DNA from: Eubacteriales bacterium
GTDB taxonomy: Bacteria; Bacillota; Clostridia; Oscillospirales; CAG-272
Assembly (NCBI GenBank): GCA_045128515.1
Contig: JBGVRO010000029.1
Coordinates: 25,585-89,584, forward strand
DNA length: 64,000 nucleotides
Direction: 5' to 3'
The position numbers and the translations under genes were made by a program. The notes under the pieces are model-generated. The model did no database searches and was not told the origin of the DNA. It saw only the letters and a list, made by a program, of their open reading frames with translations. Of the stretch, positions 13,082 to 32,796 are shown in pieces. Position 1 is the first letter of the stretch. Every line of letters starts with the position of its first letter.

Positions 13082-13100
13082 ACAAAAAAATAAACATTTA

Positions 13101-13355
13101 AAGGCTATGACAAGAAATAGTAGGCATTTTCGATGCTACAGAGAGAGGGCGGTTGGTGCGAGCCCTTGCGGAAGGAATGTTGAACCCGTCTTTGAGCCGC
13201 AAGCCGAACCTTAGTAAGCTTTGCCGGGGGTCTCCCGTTACAGAGATAGGTATTGTTTCAATACCGATAAGTGCGGATTTTATCCGAATTTAGGTGGTAC
13301 CACGGGCTAATTGCTCGTCCTAAACTGATTTTTGATCGGTTTAGGTTTTTTTGTT
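13101..13355 (+). promoter_or_regulatory. T-box riboswitch leader (tRNA-Pro sensing) with terminator
   Basis: Stem I AGAGAG...GGTGCGA element. The conserved T-box sequence AATTTAGGTGGTACCACGGG lies at 13288-13307. Terminator hairpin CCTAAACTGAT...ATCGGTTTAGG plus T-run lies at 13319-13352. A CCU (Pro) triplet lies in GAACCUUAG, and proS follows. Confidence 0.85.
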
Positions 13356-27177: not shown

Positions 27178-27246
27178 TTTTCCTATTACTATGTAATAGG
27201 ATTTTTCTTTTTATAAGCGATGGTTAACGACATTTTTGTCATTTCC
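27178..27246 (+). repeat. 69-bp direct repeat, copy A (contains palindrome CCTATTACTATGTAATAGG)
   Basis: Against 31797-31865, 23 of the first 24 nt and 18 of the last 20 nt are identical, with identical spacing. Confidence 0.75.
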
Positions 27247-27267
27247 ATAGTAGAAAATCCACGCTTA

Positions 27268-27386: not shown

Positions 27387-27629
27387 CTAATCTGACAGAA
27401 AATCTTCCACGACATCGTGTAGATGTACGGTAGAAAGCTTCAAGCGGTTGCAGTCATCAACAAGTCGAGCCAAGCTTTCTTTGTTCGACGTAATATCATG
27501 AACAGAAGATACAATTGTTGCAGTGCCGTTTTCATTTGCATCTGAATATGCCGATATACCATAAGAAACTCTGCTTTCATTTCCAAGAGTATATCTTTCT
27601 TCAACGATGCCATAAGTGACCTTTATCAT
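27387..27629 (-). CDS. small conserved hypothetical protein (DUF6514-like, from memory)
   Basis: ORF 27387..27656. The ATG at 27629 forms an ATGA overlap with the upstream HTH gene stop. Sequence MIKVTYGIVEERYTL...SYGISAY...HLHDVVEDFL. Confidence 0.65.
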   Translation of the reverse strand: MIKVTYGIVEERYTLGNESRVSYGISAYSDANENGTATIVSSVHDITSNKESLARLVDDCNRLKLSTVHLHDVVEDFLSD

Positions 27630-27898
27630 ACTGGCATCATCTCCTTTGCGTACCATTTTTGAAATTCCACATTAACAGTACTAAGAAAATGCGTCGGATC
27701 TTCCTGAATACTAAGAAGCAGAACGGTGGTTAATGTACCGCAGTTGCTTTTACCGGTTTCGATGTCGGAATATGAGCTTTCACTCATATGAAGTATTTCG
27801 CTCATTTCCTTTTGCGTAAGATTAAGGCGGTCTCTCGTTTTTATGGCGAGGAACCGTAATTCCTCGCCTAAGATTTGTGTTAAATCATATCTGATCAT
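27626..27898 (-). CDS. XRE-family helix-turn-helix transcriptional regulator
   Basis: ORF 27626..27919, with a likely start at MIRYDL (27898). HTH LNLTQKEMSEILHMSESSYSDIETGK. Confidence 0.8.
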   Translation of the reverse strand: MIRYDLTQILGEELRFLAIKTRDRLNLTQKEMSEILHMSESSYSDIETGKSNCGTLTTVLLLSIQEDPTHFLSTVNVEFQKWYAKEMMPV

Positions 27899-28129
27899 AA
27901 TGATAATATTTCCTACCACAGACGGAAGAAAATTCTATCAATAAGCCCGCACTTTTAGAATCGGGCGTACCTATGTTTCGACAGAAAATGAAAAAAGCCA
28001 AAGATTTTTGGCTAAAAGCAAGATAATAAATTTCTATAAAAGGTTAAATATGTAGTAATTTGTCACACAAAGCGACTAAAAAATGGTCGCTTTGTGTTTT
28101 GCTTTGTCACTTGTTGAGTTACAAAAGCT

Positions 28130-28546
28130 TTAGTTTTCGTTTTCAATGGTTGATGTAACTGTATCAACTGTTCCATCATTACCTGTAATCAACAGAGTGA
28201 ATTTAGCTCTGTACATACCACTACCATTATTAATATCAAATTCATGATAAAAATCTCCGTTTAATTCGGTGGATGAAGCATTCCATTCGTAAACGTCGTT
28301 CCAGAATACTAAGAGAAATCTCTTTTGTACCTTAACGTTAAGATCTGCTCGTACAAAGCTGTCATAACCGTAGTATGTGACACCTATGTATCCTACGTTA
28401 TCTCTGGCAGCAAAGGAAAAGCCTCCATTACTAGTGTGAGATAAGCGAGGGGATATTCCTTCTTCTGTTGCAAAAGCAACTACGTGGGTCATGGACATTA
28501 CAGTTATAAGAAGGACAGCTATCAGTGTTTTTGTGATTTTTTTCAT
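28130..28546 (-). CDS. small secreted beta-rich protein of unknown function
   Basis: ORF 28130..28597. The ATG at 28546 (MKKITKTLIAVLLITVMSMTHVVAFA) follows AAAGGAG and carries a signal peptide. Confidence 0.7.
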   Translation of the reverse strand: MKKITKTLIAVLLITVMSMTHVVAFATEEGISPRLSHTSNGGFSFAARDNVGYIGVTYYGYDSFVRADLNVKVQKRFLLVFWNDVYEWNASSTELNGDFYHEFDINNGSGMYRAKFTLLITGNDGTVDTVTSTIENEN

Positions 28547-28635
28547 AAAAAATCTCCTTTTAAATAATATTTTTCGAGTTCTTGAAACAAAACTCACATA
28601 TATTACAAATGTCTTTTAATAGATTCTTCAAAAAA

Positions 28636-28670
28636 TAAAAAAATCCTGAAAAATTTTTCAGGATTTTTTT
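28636..28670. terminator. bidirectional terminator hairpin
   Basis: AATCCTGAAAAATTTTTCAGGATT, flanked by an A-run and a T-run. Confidence 0.75.
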
Positions 28671-28676
28671 GGTGTT

Positions 28677-29336
28677 CTATTTAATTTCTATTCCTTCGAT
28701 AAGTTGAACTATCTCATCATTTGATAAAATGACACTTGATTTAATCTGTAGTGAATATTCTTTATCATTCCATACGTAAAAATGATAATCATTTGCTGTC
28801 CTATAGTAAATTTCGTAGTTTTCTATTTCATTTATTTGCGAATACCCTTGTTCAATATCTATGTAAAATTCAGAAATACTTATTGCACGTTGCTCGAAAT
28901 AAATAAATTCACCTTTTTGATTTTCAAATTCATACTTATTATACAAGTCGGTTGTTATTTCGCGCTTCAAAGTATATCCTTCCGGCACATAACCGAGGCA
29001 ATAAACATCCTTGATACTCTCGGCGGATTCATCGTCTCCGTCATAAGTCAGCTTCACAAAGAACTCCTCAAACACCTCGCGGATCTCGTTGCGGAAGATA
29101 ATACCGCAGCTGGTAAGAAGAAGTGCTACTGCAATAAGGATAGCAATAATGCGCCTCATCTTGGGCGACCAAACGCGTTTTGTGTCAGCTTTGCCATAGA
29201 TAATCGTTCGCATAGCAAGTTTGTGTTTCTCGGAGTAGACTATTTCCTCGGTACACTCGTCAGCCATTTTGTCAAACTTGTTGCTGACGGCTTCGTTTAA
29301 TGCTTGTTTGAATAATTCCAGATTGCTTTTATCCAT
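28677..29336 (-). CDS. DUF4367-type single-pass membrane protein (anti-sigma-factor-like)
   Basis: Cytoplasmic N-terminal segment, one TM helix (IIAILIAVALLLTSCGIIF) and an extracellular domain. It overlaps the upstream sigma-factor gene by 8 nt. Confidence 0.75.
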   Translation of the reverse strand: MDKSNLELFKQALNEAVSNKFDKMADECTEEIVYSEKHKLAMRTIIYGKADTKRVWSPKMRRIIAILIAVALLLTSCGIIFRNEIREVFEEFFVKLTYDGDDESAESIKDVYCLGYVPEGYTLKREITTDLYNKYEFENQKGEFIYFEQRAISISEFYIDIEQGYSQINEIENYEIYYRTANDYHFYVWNDKEYSLQIKSSVILSNDEIVQLIEGIEIK

Positions 29337-29889
29337 TAATCTTTGCCCCTTTCAAGATTTCGAGTAAGAGCTTCTTGCCTCTGGCAAGTCGGGTATAGAC
29401 CGTTTTTGGAGAAATACCCATCAGTTCGGCAATTGCATTTGGGGTCATCTCCTTGCAGAAAAAGAGCTGCAGGGTGGTGCAGTACTTATCGTCAAGCTTT
29501 TCGATCGCTTTGACTATTTCACCATAGCATTCCTTCATTTTAAGCTCTTCTATAAAGTTATACTCTCCTGCAGAACTAAATTCTTCATCAAATTCAAAAT
29601 TTTCTTGATTGTCACTCAATACGTTACAAATTTCGTTACTTAATATGGCTAAACAATAATTTTTGACATCTTTCTCGTCGCGAGAAAAGTCTATATTATC
29701 TATGTACTTTGTTATTTTCATAAAGGCATTTTGTACGGCATCCTCAGCATCGTATGTGTAATTGCTCCTTCCTAAGGACTTGAATTTAGTAACCGCACAT
29801 TTCATCATATAGTCGTGATATTTGTTGTACAGATGTTCAATTTTCCCGTGATTAGACTCATCTGTAAGTGTTAATAGAAATTGTAACAT
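29329..29889 (-). CDS. RNA polymerase sigma factor, sigma-70 family (ECF-like)
   Basis: Region 2 (DAEDAVQNAFMKI) and region 4 HTH (MTPNAIAELMGISPKTVYTRLARGKKLL). RBS AGAGG. Confidence 0.85.
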   Translation of the reverse strand: MLQFLLTLTDESNHGKIEHLYNKYHDYMMKCAVTKFKSLGRSNYTYDAEDAVQNAFMKITKYIDNIDFSRDEKDVKNYCLAILSNEICNVLSDNQENFEFDEEFSSAGEYNFIEELKMKECYGEIVKAIEKLDDKYCTTLQLFFCKEMTPNAIAELMGISPKTVYTRLARGKKLLLEILKGAKING

Positions 29890-30311
29890 GATAACCTCTT
29901 GTTTTTATTTTTATTCTACTCATTATAGCATATTTCGACGTTTTAATCAATGATAAATATTTTTTATTATTTTTTACGAATTTTGAAGAATTTTGTCGCT
30001 ATGGTCCGTAATATATACAAAAATAAATCGCAGAAAGGGGCGAATCCAATGTTTTTGATGCAAAAGTTTTTTTGTCTAACTTATTAACGCCCGACATAGC
30101 AACGCCATGACGAGTCGAATCATTTCATAAAGGAAAAATCAATTTCTTGGGTGATCCACTAGGACCTGTTGTATTGTTGTGTTGGCTGAACGAAAATTTG
30201 CTGAGCATAGGGCTAACTGCAAGGACAAGCCCTCCGAAATGTGTCCTTGAACCACAGTTCACTTGCTGGTGGGCGAAATAAAATCTAAGATTAAAAAGGA
30301 AAATTAAAAAT

Positions 30312-31001
30312 ATGGCAGATCAAATTAATATTGGATATCCCGCAATTTCAGAAAAGGCATGGTGGATTATTAGAGATAAATTCAAGGCTTCATTACCATC
30401 TTCTTTTTCACCTACATATGTAAAATCTCTTTTGTCGATGGCGAGTGATAATTCTGCAAATAGCAATGTTATCACTCCGATGAAACGATTGGGTTTGATA
30501 GATGAAGAAAACAAGCCGACAGCATTGGCAAATCAGTGGAGAATCGATGATACGTATGGAAAGGCGTGCGAAACGATGCTTAAAGCTGTCTACCCAATAG
30601 AACTGCTTGATTTATTCCCGGATGAAGTAGTAGATAAAAATTCTGCACGTACTTGGTTTATGAGTAATGGCGTAGGACAAGCTGCTGCGGATAAGATGAT
30701 AGCGTTGTTTGTTTTGTTGAAAGAGGGAAAAGTAAAGGATAAAAAGACGTCTCTAGCTAAAAAAACAAACACTACAACTTCCGCAAAAGAAGCTAAAAAA
30801 GTTACGACTACTCGTACAGAAAAAGCTATTCATGCTGAATCTCTTGTTGTAGAACCAACGGTGCAAAATTCTGCTCCTGTAAGTAATCGTCCTAATTTGC
30901 ACATTGACTTGCAAATACATATTTCACCTGAGTCGACTCCCGAGCAAATAGAGTGCATCTTTGCGAGCATGGCGAAGCACTTGTATGGAGAGGGTAAATA
31001 A
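30312..31001 (+). CDS. DUF5343-like protein with a K/T-rich linker and a short conserved C-terminal tail
   Basis: 229 aa. Globular N domain (MADQINIGYPAISEKAWWIIRDKF...MIALFVLLKEG), a low-complexity linker (KVKDKKTSLAKKTNTTTSAKEAKKVTTTRTEK) and the tail NLHIDLQIHISPESTPEQIECIFASMAKHLYG. The stop overlaps the next start (TAATG). Family name is from memory. Confidence 0.75.
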   Translation: MADQINIGYPAISEKAWWIIRDKFKASLPSSFSPTYVKSLLSMASDNSANSNVITPMKRLGLIDEENKPTALANQWRIDDTYGKACETMLKAVYPIELLDLFPDEVVDKNSARTWFMSNGVGQAAADKMIALFVLLKEGKVKDKKTSLAKKTNTTTSAKEAKKVTTTRTEKAIHAESLVVEPTVQNSAPVSNRPNLHIDLQIHISPESTPEQIECIFASMAKHLYGEGK

Positions 31002-31516
31002 TGAATAATCCTTCTGACGTTTTGATTATAACGCAAAAAATACAGCAAGACCTTATATTCTTAGGTTTCTCTTGTGATGCCGCGCATAATGGAAAAAGTT
31101 CTTCGAATTTTTTTGATGAACTTGTTACTAATAAAACGTTGCGTAAAAAGACAGGGAAACTATTTAAAGATGGTCACCACGCAAGAGCTGTAGAAGAAGC
31201 GTATAAATTGTTGGATAATATTGTAAAAAACAAGGCAGGCATGAGTCAATCCTCTACAACGGGTTCGGCTTTGATGCAGAAGGCTTTTACTCCAAACAAG
31301 CCGATTTTGAAGTTGAATGCCGGGGGGACGCCATCTGAAATGGATGAACAAAATGGTTATATGCAAATTTTTGCAGGCTGTATGACAGGCATTAGAAATC
31401 CGAGGGCTCACGAATCCGATTGGGAAGACACCGAGGAAAGGGCTCTACAACTCATAATCTTTGCCAATCATTTGATTGAACGAGCACAGCTTTCTGAAGT
31501 TTCAGTGGCCCAATAA
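31001..31516 (+). CDS. TIGR02391 / Hypoth_Ymh family protein
   Basis: 171 aa. LFKDGHHARAVEEAYKLLDNIVK ... GSALMQKAF ... DEQNGYMQIFAGCMTGIRNPRAHE ... ALQLIIFANHLIERA matches the family signature as I remember it (GHY..AV.EA.K, RNP.AHE). Confidence 0.8.
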   Translation: MNNPSDVLIITQKIQQDLIFLGFSCDAAHNGKSSSNFFDELVTNKTLRKKTGKLFKDGHHARAVEEAYKLLDNIVKNKAGMSQSSTTGSALMQKAFTPNKPILKLNAGGTPSEMDEQNGYMQIFAGCMTGIRNPRAHESDWEDTEERALQLIIFANHLIERAQLSEVSVAQ

Positions 31517-31601
31517 AAAATTGTGATATAAGGAGCTTTTTGTGGCAAGATATTGACAATTGTTTATCAGATACCTAAAAAACAAGGGTATTCCACAAAT
31601 C

Positions 31602-31645: not shown

Positions 31646-31796
31646 GAAAAGAAAAGAGGGCATTTGGGAGTTTCCTCCCAAATGCCCTTAAAGCCTTGAT
31701 ATATAAAGAAAATCGGACGGGGCTACGAAGAATAGCACCACGTCCGATTTTGGTCTAAGTGACAAAGCCTAATTTGATACAACCCAAATCCCTTGG

Positions 31797-31865
31797 TTTT
31801 CCTATTACTACGTAATAGGAACTTTTTATTTTTTTCGCCTAAAAGACGATATTTTTGTCATTTTC
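31797..31865 (+). repeat. 69-bp direct repeat, copy B (palindrome CCTATTACTACGTAATAGG)
   Basis: See copy A at 27178-27246. Confidence 0.75.
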
Positions 31866-32046
31866 AAGCTCAATTTTTGCTCATTTTTGCACACTTTCAA
31901 AACCTCGAAAAATGCCTGAAAATGCCCCAAAAACAGCCTACTTATTAAAATCCTTGTGGTATTTAGAACCATGTTTTGAAACAGTTTTTACTGACTATAC
32001 CGAAAAACTCTTTGAAACATCCAAGCATTTTAAAACTTGCAAAGAT

Positions 32047-32128: not shown

Positions 32129-32518
32129 CATTATGATTACGATGCAGAGATTAAATAGAAATATAGTAATACACCTGTATATAAAGAGTACAAATCAAAG
32201 ACTAAGGGATATGGTGAAGCGAAATGGGTTGCTAATAATCTTGCCCTTTGGGTTGTATTTTCAGAGTTTGCAGATCTTAAGAAAGCTGGATTAGAGCCTT
32301 AATCCATTGAAGCACAAGATTTAGTTGTGAAACTTCAGAAGACTATAACAAAGTATTATTACACTTGTACCGATGAAACTCTTGCCGGTCTTGGTCAAAT
32401 GTACGTAGCAGACGAAAGATTCAAAAATATAGATAAAAATAATACAGAGGGAAGCGCAGAGTTTGCTTCAAAAACAATAGCTATTTATTGCGCGCAAAAG
32501 TCTAATAATGTAAAGTAA
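32129..32518 (+). pseudogene. remnant of a MerR/TipA-type regulator (TipAS effector domain only, two in-frame stops)
   Basis: A single frame reads HYDYDAEIK*KYSNTPVYKEYKSKTKGYGEAKW...AGLEP*SIEAQDLVVKLQKTI...LAGLGQMYVADERFKNIDK. Stops lie at 32156 and 32300. No N-terminal HTH is present. Confidence 0.7.
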
Positions 32519-32562
32519 TGTTTGCGTATGAGCATAAAAACATAGAAAAACGAGGAAATCTT

Positions 32563-32796
32563 ATGTCACATCCTAAAATAAAACGCAACGCAATTAAGTG
32601 TAAAACTTGTGGAGATATAATCGAATCAAAGCATACTCACGATTTTGTAACTTCCTCTTGTCAGAGCTGTTCAGTAGATGGTAGATTAAGCTATGTTACC
32701 CGACCCGCACGAACTTTAATTTTTCAAAGGCATAATCGAATCGCAAAGAACAATAGATCAAGCGTTAAATACCAATTTACCCTTACCGATGGGTGA
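32563..32796 (+). CDS. small zinc-ribbon protein, possibly degraded
   Basis: MSHPKIKRNAIKCKTCGDIIESKHTHDFVTSSCQSCSVDG. The C-terminal half looks unlike a folded domain. Confidence 0.35.
   Translation: MSHPKIKRNAIKCKTCGDIIESKHTHDFVTSSCQSCSVDGRLSYVTRPARTLIFQRHNRIAKNNRSSVKYQFTLTDG

Follow-up and report, generated by a model that had tools for sequence, protein, structure and literature searches.

Few executioners are as common in bacterial immunity as HEPN RNases and TIR domains, and the specificity of the systems that deploy them is set by the way they are restrained and switched on. The solved cases of such control all differ from one another. In the HEPN-MNT modules (HepT/MntA) the minimal nucleotidyltransferase partner AMPylates the toxin. 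AbiV of Lactococcus, a HEPN RNase toxin that depends on its N-terminal 23 residues for activity, belongs to a type III toxin-antitoxin (TA) antiphage system and is governed by an RNA antitoxin (bioRxiv 10.1101/2024.05.05.592566). In RAZR a single polypeptide combines a zinc-ribbon sensor with a DUF4145-type HEPN domain and becomes active when it assembles on ring proteins of the phage (PMC13017515). Here we analyze a two-gene locus in a stretch of 64,000 nucleotides from a Eubacteriales bacterium (contig JBGVRO010000029.1; the whole stretch is hereafter the window), in which a gene for a DUF5343 protein of 229 amino acids (aa) (gene 1; 30312-31001, + strand) is followed by one for a Ymh-family HEPN protein of 171 aa (gene 2; 31001-31516, + strand). 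We think it rather probable that this pair is a conflict module with a HEPN RNase effector that is controlled by the product of gene 1.

Two further sets of described systems are relevant to this locus. PD-lambda-3 (Vassallo et al. 2022) is a two-gene system of E. coli that functions by abortive infection (PMC13190303), and the partner of its PD-Lambda-3_B protein has been reported with a PD-(D/E)XK nuclease domain (PMC10952713). The PDC systems are 145 candidates defined by their embedding in BREX, DISARM or type I restriction-modification (R-M) systems; among them PDC-M34 is a two-gene cassette (FAM_01148>>FAM_01657) with 97 RefSeq instances and with the status of a candidate only (Payne et al. 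2024, bioRxiv 10.1101/2024.01.29.577857). A preliminary description of the locus, made from the sequence alone, held that neither of its protein families had an assigned function. This is out of date: the Ymh family has been predicted to be a HEPN RNase since 2013 (PMC3710099) and gene 1 is matched by the PADLOC model PDC-M34A.

An overlapping gene pair with a predicted HEPN effector

The two open reading frames (ORFs) have exactly the coordinates and lengths first described for them, the stop codon of gene 1 (TAA, 30999-31001) and the start codon of gene 2 (ATG, 31001-31003) sharing a single base in the sequence TAATG. The Shine-Dalgarno sequence GGAGAGGG (30987-30994) lies 6 bases 5' of the gene 2 ATG and completes a putative coupling junction at 30987-31003 on the + strand. 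Profile searches bore out the initial assignment of gene 2 to the TIGR02391/Hypoth_Ymh family, with scores above the curated cut-offs of both Hypoth_Ymh (PF09509; 97 bits, cut-off 25) and TIGR02391 (62.5 bits, cut-off 39.45). When PF09509 was placed in the HEPN superfamily, its members were noted to possess a conserved Rx4-6H motif, by which active HEPN RNases are defined, and to occur alone or in R-M operons (PMC3710099). The predicted catalytic motif of gene 2 is R132-N-P-R-A-H137 (Rx4H; 31394-31411, + strand), and G130, R132, N133, P134, R135, A136 and H137 are invariant across 57 homologues. Among the PADLOC models only PD-Lambda-3_B (6e-12) and Aga_HEPN, an Argonaute-associated HEPN (1e-7), were matched. 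The AlphaFold2 model of the protein (pLDDT 84) is all-helical, with a predicted amphipathic N-terminal helix (residues 4-20; 31010-31060, + strand), a variable linker of low confidence (residues 21-33) and a helical bundle. Its top Foldseek matches in the PDB are the HEPN protein AF_0298 (2hsb; probability 0.99, E=0.17) and many AbiV chains; the TM is 0.45/0.58. Sequence searches for solved relatives returned none for either protein.

Gene 1 belongs to a large family, of about 1,000 clusters from at least six phyla: a word-indexed search returned 645 homologues, and clustering at 50% identity gave 997 representative clusters at E<=1e-3 and 211 at E<=1e-30, most of them matched over their full length. 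That the two genes might recur side by side had been raised as a check on the locus, and a co-directional partner indeed follows the ORF bearing the conserved C-terminal tail (see below) in 109 of the 118 loci that we fetched (designated below by L numbers). Seven of the nine exceptions stop within ~220 bases of a contig end and L031 is a decayed copy; the ninth, L092, is outside those examined. The junction overlaps by 4 bases in 42 loci and by 1 base in 48, which together make up 90 of the 109 pairs. The loci span Oscillospiraceae, Christensenellales, Bacilli, Anaeroplasmataceae, Chloroflexota, Actinomycetota, Pseudomonadota and a cyanobacterium in a patchy distribution, and the viral contigs of IMG/VR encode no relative. 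The latter result, the many housekeeping neighbors in diverse genomes and the existence of non-toxic HEPN families (PMC3710099) would agree with a role outside biological conflicts, with gene 1 as an ordinary factor for transcription or nucleic-acid binding and gene 2 as a HEPN protein that processes RNA or binds nucleotides in housekeeping. We regard such a role as highly improbable in view of the patchy spread over at least six phyla with different neighbors in each genome, the matches to models of defence systems, the location in a low-GC islet and carriage on a mobile element, and the replacement of the HEPN protein by TIR/SEFIR effectors.

The DUF5343 protein, its tail and its varied partners

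The N-terminal region of gene 1 had been taken for DUF5343, and residues 25-134 do match this Pfam family (PF17278; 37 bits, E=5e-9, cut-off 27), with relatives of gene 1 scoring up to 116 bits. The PDC-M34A model aligns with residues 24-224 (E=2.5e-9; model positions 22-207 of 208), the tail included, and its match is far stronger in distant relatives (3.9e-37 in L037) than in the window protein. No nucleotidyltransferase family of Pfam, NCBIfam or PADLOC matches gene 1. The three-part build that was noticed at the outset proved to be real and conserved, and the pLDDT profile of the AlphaFold2 model (overall 86) delineates the same N-domain, linker and tail. The N-domain (residues 1-140; 30312-30731, + strand) is modelled as a globular, helical structure (pLDDT 96-98 for about residues 10-140) with an embedded helix-helix-hairpin unit, and is possibly winged-helix-like; W17, R21, W76, R77, D79, Y82, Y94, W115 and F116 are its conserved residues. 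The K/T/S-rich, low-complexity linker (about residues 141-192; 30732-30887, + strand; pLDDT 56-70 over residues 141-190) is probably disordered, and it lacks conserved columns, being variable in sequence and constant in presence. Comparison with L129, an 82% identical relative, gave an omega (the ratio of non-synonymous to synonymous rates) of 0.12 for each gene as a whole, and within gene 1 it falls from 0.48 in the linker to 0.06 in the N-domain and 0.01 in the tail, at a synonymous divergence (dS) of 1.19 in the latter.

The tail (residues 193-229, PNLHIDLQIHISPESTPEQIECIFASMAKHLYG; 30888-30998, + strand; pLDDT 80-93 over residues 195-225), with a length of 32 residues that stays nearly invariant, is better conserved than any other part of the system. 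In the model an amphipathic strand, whose polar face reads H-x-D-x-Q-x-H, leads into a helix at residues 210-224. The consensus P-x-L-H-I-D-x-Q-I-H-I-S-P-[DE]-x4-Q-I-[DE]-x-I-F-x-S-M-x-K-H-L-Y is kept throughout, and 38 diverse tails show no variation at H, D, Q, H, I and F; in L038 the tail is unchanged and the N-domain has no DUF5343 match. A homology search with the tail alone, aimed at other N-domains, was uninformative in that it returned just proteins of 30-83 aa. The one that we inspected, from Burkholderia cenocepacia (L128:7445-8159), is a gene 1 homologue split by a frameshift in the linker, with its tail annotated as a 52-aa 'hypothetical protein', and many of the other 30-83 aa entries may be similar artefacts or decayed copies.

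Examination of the partners, counted as non-redundant pairs from the collection scans, revealed a Ymh protein in 57 and a non-Ymh protein in 7. Five of these 7, along with the Burkholderia locus from a separate look-up, encode a DUF4145-like HEPN protein of 170-183 aa (L027, L032, L035, L037, L038 and L128). These proteins score 16-24 bits against DUF4145, which is another HEPN family (cut-off 23.1), and share an invariant AH-x-RRF-x-A core that in most copies reads GDKSAHSRRFxAH; the motif is again Rx4H, except in L037, where N replaces the final H. The third type is a TIR/SEFIR protein, found in Cryobacterium (L028) and Leifsonia (L029). The former matches Pfam TIR_2 (29.4 bits, cut-off 28) and PADLOC bSEFIR (1e-21), and the latter, like the partners in the distant relatives L141 and L142, was assigned by the common FVSWAHS...WAERWSG sequence. 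The same tail accompanies all three types of effector. Such swapping of effectors (HEPN, HEPN, TIR) is to be expected of a sensor/effector or toxin/antitoxin module. PADLOC PDC-M34B, which the supplement of the paper lists by family id only, matched none of the Ymh-HEPN (window and L120), DUF4145-like or TIR partners that we checked.

The N-terminal segments of the effectors were compared with each other. A profile of the first 28 residues of the Ymh partners scored 23.6, 10.0 and 8.7 bits against three of the five DUF4145-type N-termini, above all 200 shuffles, and was marginal or negative against the remaining two (L035 and L037). An hhalign comparison of the two HEPN partner families aligned this N-terminal stretch as its sole segment (E=0.0036, with low probability). 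These sequence similarities make an N-terminal adaptor common to the HEPN-type partners plausible. The four TIR partners have the same layout of a short N-terminal segment, a variable linker and a domain.

The order of the genes, their coupling, the folded N-domain, the flexible linker and the conserved C-terminal element lend gene 1 a resemblance to a type II antitoxin, and effector swapping and the defence contexts described below lend the pair a resemblance to a sensor-effector immune pair; the two readings overlap and the roles are not mutually exclusive. In its classical form, a type II addiction module would have gene 1 as an antitoxin with an N-terminal DNA-binding domain, a protease-labile disordered linker and a toxin-binding C-terminal tail, which would both autorepress the operon and neutralise the HEPN toxin. 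Such a module would serve mainly to stabilise mobile elements and islands and not to sense phage. This would be in keeping with the antitoxin-first order, the overlapping genes, a folded N-domain followed by a disordered C-terminal half, and the weak fold matches to winged-helix repressors, LexA-N and MarR/SlyA, although the winged-helix similarity is not significant and no operator-like repeat was noticed, no search aimed at one having been made. Moreover, neutralising segments normally co-evolve with the toxin, whereas here the tail is invariant even though the 'toxin' varies over three unrelated folds or families. Taken with the gene neighborhoods, these features make a purely classical addiction module unlikely.

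Gene neighborhoods of the relatives and of the window copy

In the window's own clade the defence context is strong, with AbiL, TIR, BREX, type II R-M, Z1/Dcm/Vsr and a mobilizable element. The closest relatives (82-88% identity; L129-L132 and L139-L140) contain the co-directional cluster AbiLi-AbiLii/RloB-pair-TIR, in which the genes from AbiLi to the pair are spaced by 3-5 bases and the TIR gene follows after 26-27 bases; PADLOC recognizes AbiLi and AbiLii/RloB of L129 at 8e-89 and 2e-21 respectively. The TIR protein encoded 3' of the pair (L129:4107-4826; also in L139 and L140) is ThsB-like, with matches to PDC-S66 (6e-61) and ThsB (2e-32). In L001 and L002, AbiL and the pair adjoin a Z1/DUF4420/Dcm/Vsr cluster, and L001 additionally has an HsdM fragment and a BREX BrxC/PglY gene. 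L135 and L136 combine the pair with AlwI-type R-M, AIPR, recombinases and a decayed AbiL, and the surroundings of the pair in L133 include an AbiLi-like ATPase together with DUF4145 and PDDEXK proteins. The 217-aa DUF4145 protein of this last locus (L133:6279-6932) matches PD-T7-4 (3e-9) and is encoded 3 kb 5' of the pair, adjoining the AbiLi-like ATPase on the opposite strand.

In gut bacteria (L122-L127) the pair and type II R-M are carried as cargo by a small mobilizable, integrative element that occupies two chromosomal sites and codes for TnpV, a helix-turn-helix (HTH) protein, the R-M system, the pair, a NikA-like protein, a relaxase, TnpW and a large serine recombinase. No gene was called at the Ymh position of L122. 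Carriage on an element with a relaxase, a recombinase and two insertion sites, the proximity to recombinases elsewhere and the solo occurrence among housekeeping genes in many genomes are also what a type II addiction module might display; the repeated embedding of the pair among bona fide defence genes fits defence at least equally.

Directly upstream of the pair in the window is a dead 3' fragment of abiLii (rloB), detected by tblastn with the RloB protein of L129 (30176-30304, + strand; 91% identity, E=3e-22). It comprises 43 codons, for residues 175-217 of 217, with an in-frame stop (MCP*TT as opposed to MCPCTT in the relative), and accounts for the 129 GC-richer bases 5' of the pair. An RNA element had been considered for the GC-richer stretch at 30090-30300 and was rejected, there being no Rfam match in what is the remnant of a protein gene. 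Nucleotide homology between the window and L129 is limited to ~30182-31550, and the window holds no AbiLi gene and no remnant of the TIR gene. Given this fragment and the AbiLi-AbiLii-pair-TIR cluster of the closest relatives, the window pair appears to be an orphaned survivor, itself intact, of a larger cluster whose upstream genes have been deleted, and it is far better conserved than its flanks.

The last point emerges from L137 and L138, contigs from other samples that have the downstream flank of the window and hence the same truncated arrangement. They differ from the window at 5 of 1,200 coding bases, with 2 amino-acid changes in gene 1 and 0 in gene 2, as against 4 sites (5%) in 80 bases of the abiLii remnant and 13-17% (83-87% identity) in the downstream non-coding DNA. 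The synonymous changes in the pair are too few for selection at the protein level alone, which suggests either that the cassette was transferred or converted recently or that the flanks decay unusually fast. On either account, the near-identity of the coding DNA beside diverged flanks speaks against a decaying relic. It thereby also counts against the pair being an AbiL accessory that is unable to act alone, with the window copy as a non-functional leftover of a deleted cluster. This alternative draws on the abiLii remnant with its in-frame stop, the tightly spaced AbiLi-AbiLii-pair-TIR arrangement in all the closest relatives and the lack of a consensus + strand promoter upstream. We nevertheless judge it to be quite improbable, as both ORFs are intact and of full length, the omega of 0.12 points to constraint, and most pairs, including that on the mobile element with R-M, are without AbiL. 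AbiL is upstream in only ~14 of ~78 non-redundant loci, and on this count we rejected it as an obligatory partner.

The locus had been portrayed as part of an AT-richer island with pseudogenes. The portrayal stands as regards composition (31-39% GC in 27-33 kb versus ~42-48% elsewhere in the window) and the presence of a pseudogene fragment, and requires correction in that the DNA 5' of the pair is the abiLii remnant rather than plain intergenic sequence. To the left, in the same low-GC segment, a minus-strand run (27387-29889) codes for DUF6514 and XRE-type HTH proteins from overlapping genes, a secreted-looking protein of 155 aa, a membrane protein of 219 aa and a sigma-70-family factor; the 155-aa and 219-aa proteins have no family match, and the run looks like a regulatory cassette of the sigma/anti-sigma type. 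To the right, ~800 bases without a credible gene separate gene 2 from a 63-aa ORF with the C-terminal half only of a TipAS (MerR/TipA-type) domain, a pseudogene fragment (32327-32518), which is followed by a DUF7695 zinc-ribbon-like ORF (32518-32796). PADLOC gave no meaningful match for the neighbors of the pair in the window. The arms AGGGCATTTGGGAG/CTCCCAAATGCCCT make up a perfect 14-bp hairpin at 31657-31688, 140 bases beyond gene 2; with its T-run on the minus strand, it resembles by its sequence a terminator for transcription arriving from the right. A direct repeat of ~35-70 nucleotides, which holds the 19-nucleotide palindrome CCTATTACTAYGTAATAGG followed by a T-run, is present at 27178-27250 and 31797-31870, with just these two copies in the 64 kb against a chance expectation of 0. 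The two copies flank the 4.6-kb segment of lowest GC, which includes the regulators, the abiLii remnant and the pair, and could mark the termini of an inserted element or be a terminator cassette present twice. The Rfam matches in the window are a T-box leader (13098-13325, + strand; 130.6 bits) and tRNA-Ser(GCT) (1135-1224, - strand); as ordinary chromosomal features they indicate that the window is cellular DNA of the Bacillota type.

Proposed function and comparison with known systems

By analogy with AbiV, RAZR and PD-lambda-3, gene 2 is most likely a growth-arresting RNase and gene 1 its controller, and the two would form a self-contained module of the toxin-antitoxin or abortive-infection type. 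Gene 1 would be made first, with the overlapping junction coupling the translation of gene 2 to it. Its N-domain would be the likely sensing or nucleic-acid-binding part, the K/T/S-rich linker a flexible tether and the invariant strand-helix tail the element that exerts control, such that gene 1 would keep the effector silent and a trigger would bring about its release or activation. Gene 2, dimerising as other HEPN proteins do, would present a composite Rx4H active site and cut RNA, thereby stopping the growth of an infected or plasmid-losing cell. The sequences directly show the gene structure, the family membership, the invariant catalytic motif, the conserved adjacency and coupling, the swapping of effectors, the defence and mobile-element contexts, purifying selection and the abiLii remnant; RNase activity, toxicity, the assignment of sensing to either protein and a tail-effector contact are inferred. 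The preliminary description had proposed a sensor/effector or TA-like defence pair, with the function itself inferred. This proposal is supported by our analysis, in that none of the computational tests suggested with it came out to the contrary and effector swapping fits it.

Several observations weigh against the conflict-module interpretation. A suggested check for enrichment of defence genes, strongly positive in the window's own clade, gave only a moderate signal across 26 diverse genomes: among the two nearest ORFs per side were 3 Fic/DOC genes, 3-4 DNA methyltransferases, 2 AbiLi-type ATPases, resolvases and a transposase, and many of the immediate neighbors were housekeeping genes. The association with defence islands in these genomes is thus real but moderate, in line with a comment that association with other systems is weaker for embedded candidates (Payne et al. 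2024, bioRxiv 10.1101/2024.01.29.577857). In the window no further defence gene is found near the pair, and a crude scan for sigma-70 consensus sequences on the + strand 5' of gene 1 found none, for which reason expression of the pair is putative only. The Foldseek E-values of gene 2 are weak (0.17 or worse), and the gene 1 model has no significant match in the PDB, where the weak matches are mostly winged-helix regulators, or in the viral BFVD library; 'winged helix' is therefore just a lead. In the literature library that we searched, DUF5343/PF17278 is not mentioned and no phenotype is given for PF09509/TIGR02391 or for the PDC-M34 pair. Finally, the tail does not co-vary with the type of effector, and a docking helix common to all effectors had to be rejected for the TIR partners, whose N-terminal similarity is not beyond chance.

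The lack of co-variation and the absence of a common N-terminal docking segment from the TIR partners argue against a simple model in which the tail binds the effector, and we consider it doubtful that the tail docks on the N-terminal helix of the effector. A tail that stays constant while the effector changes would act on something common to all versions, which might be the assembly of the sensor with itself, a metal or ligand bound by the H-x-D-x-Q-x-H face, or a universal host or phage factor. We tentatively raise the possibility that proteins with DUF5343 and this tail are a widespread class of immune sensors or adaptors, whose interchangeable effectors (two HEPN families and TIR/SEFIR) are controlled via the invariant 32-residue tail. 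If true, tail-based control would be a mechanism without a described counterpart among the known defence and toxin-antitoxin systems. Since the partner and its invariant tail stay constant while three effectors are exchanged, and since solo and embedded versions occur naturally, the control mechanism can be put to direct test. The import for the window is more modest: its GC-richer upstream stretch is explained, and the pair is shown to be what survives, in conserved form, of a decayed defence cluster.

Comparison with the systems introduced above brings out both shared and distinct features. Like HEPN-MNT, the pair has two overlapping genes and a predicted HEPN toxin, and it differs in that gene 1 has no nucleotidyltransferase match. 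With AbiV, which is among its best fold matches, gene 2 has in common that it is a small stand-alone HEPN protein with Rx4-6H, and the essential N-terminus of AbiV parallels the conserved N-terminal helix of gene 2. However, AbiV is neutralised by an RNA (abiV2) rather than a protein and has no DUF5343 partner, and no sequence-level similarity between the two was detected, their fold E-values being 0.3 or worse. RAZR has the logic of a sensor combined with a HEPN RNase in abortive infection, and its DUF4145-type HEPN corresponds to the alternative partner of gene 1, whereas the candidate sensor of the present pair is a separate protein with another fold and a conserved tail. PD-lambda-3 likewise has two genes, and gene 2 aligns to the C-terminal domain, positions 156-258, of the PD-Lambda-3_B model, but at 270 positions PD-Lambda-3_B is the longer protein, with additional N-terminal sequence, and gene 1 has no match to PD-Lambda-3_A. 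AbiL, of the AbiLi ATPase and AbiLii/RloB, is the immediate upstream neighbor in the window's clade, but is a separate system that is absent from most pair loci and not intact in the window. Type II TA systems share the antitoxin-first order, the coupling and the disordered linker, with DNA binding hinted at only by the non-significant winged-helix matches. PDC-M34 is likewise a two-gene cassette and its A model matches gene 1 over the full length; the differences are that gene 2 and the other partner types do not match PDC-M34B and that the A match is weak in the window. Thus, two-gene modules of the HEPN toxin type, the Ymh effector family and the gene 1 family as the PDC-M34A candidate are already known, and the new elements are a controller of unrecognised fold, a tail indifferent to the type of effector, a three-way exchange of effectors and an orphaned survivor of an AbiL-pair-TIR cluster.

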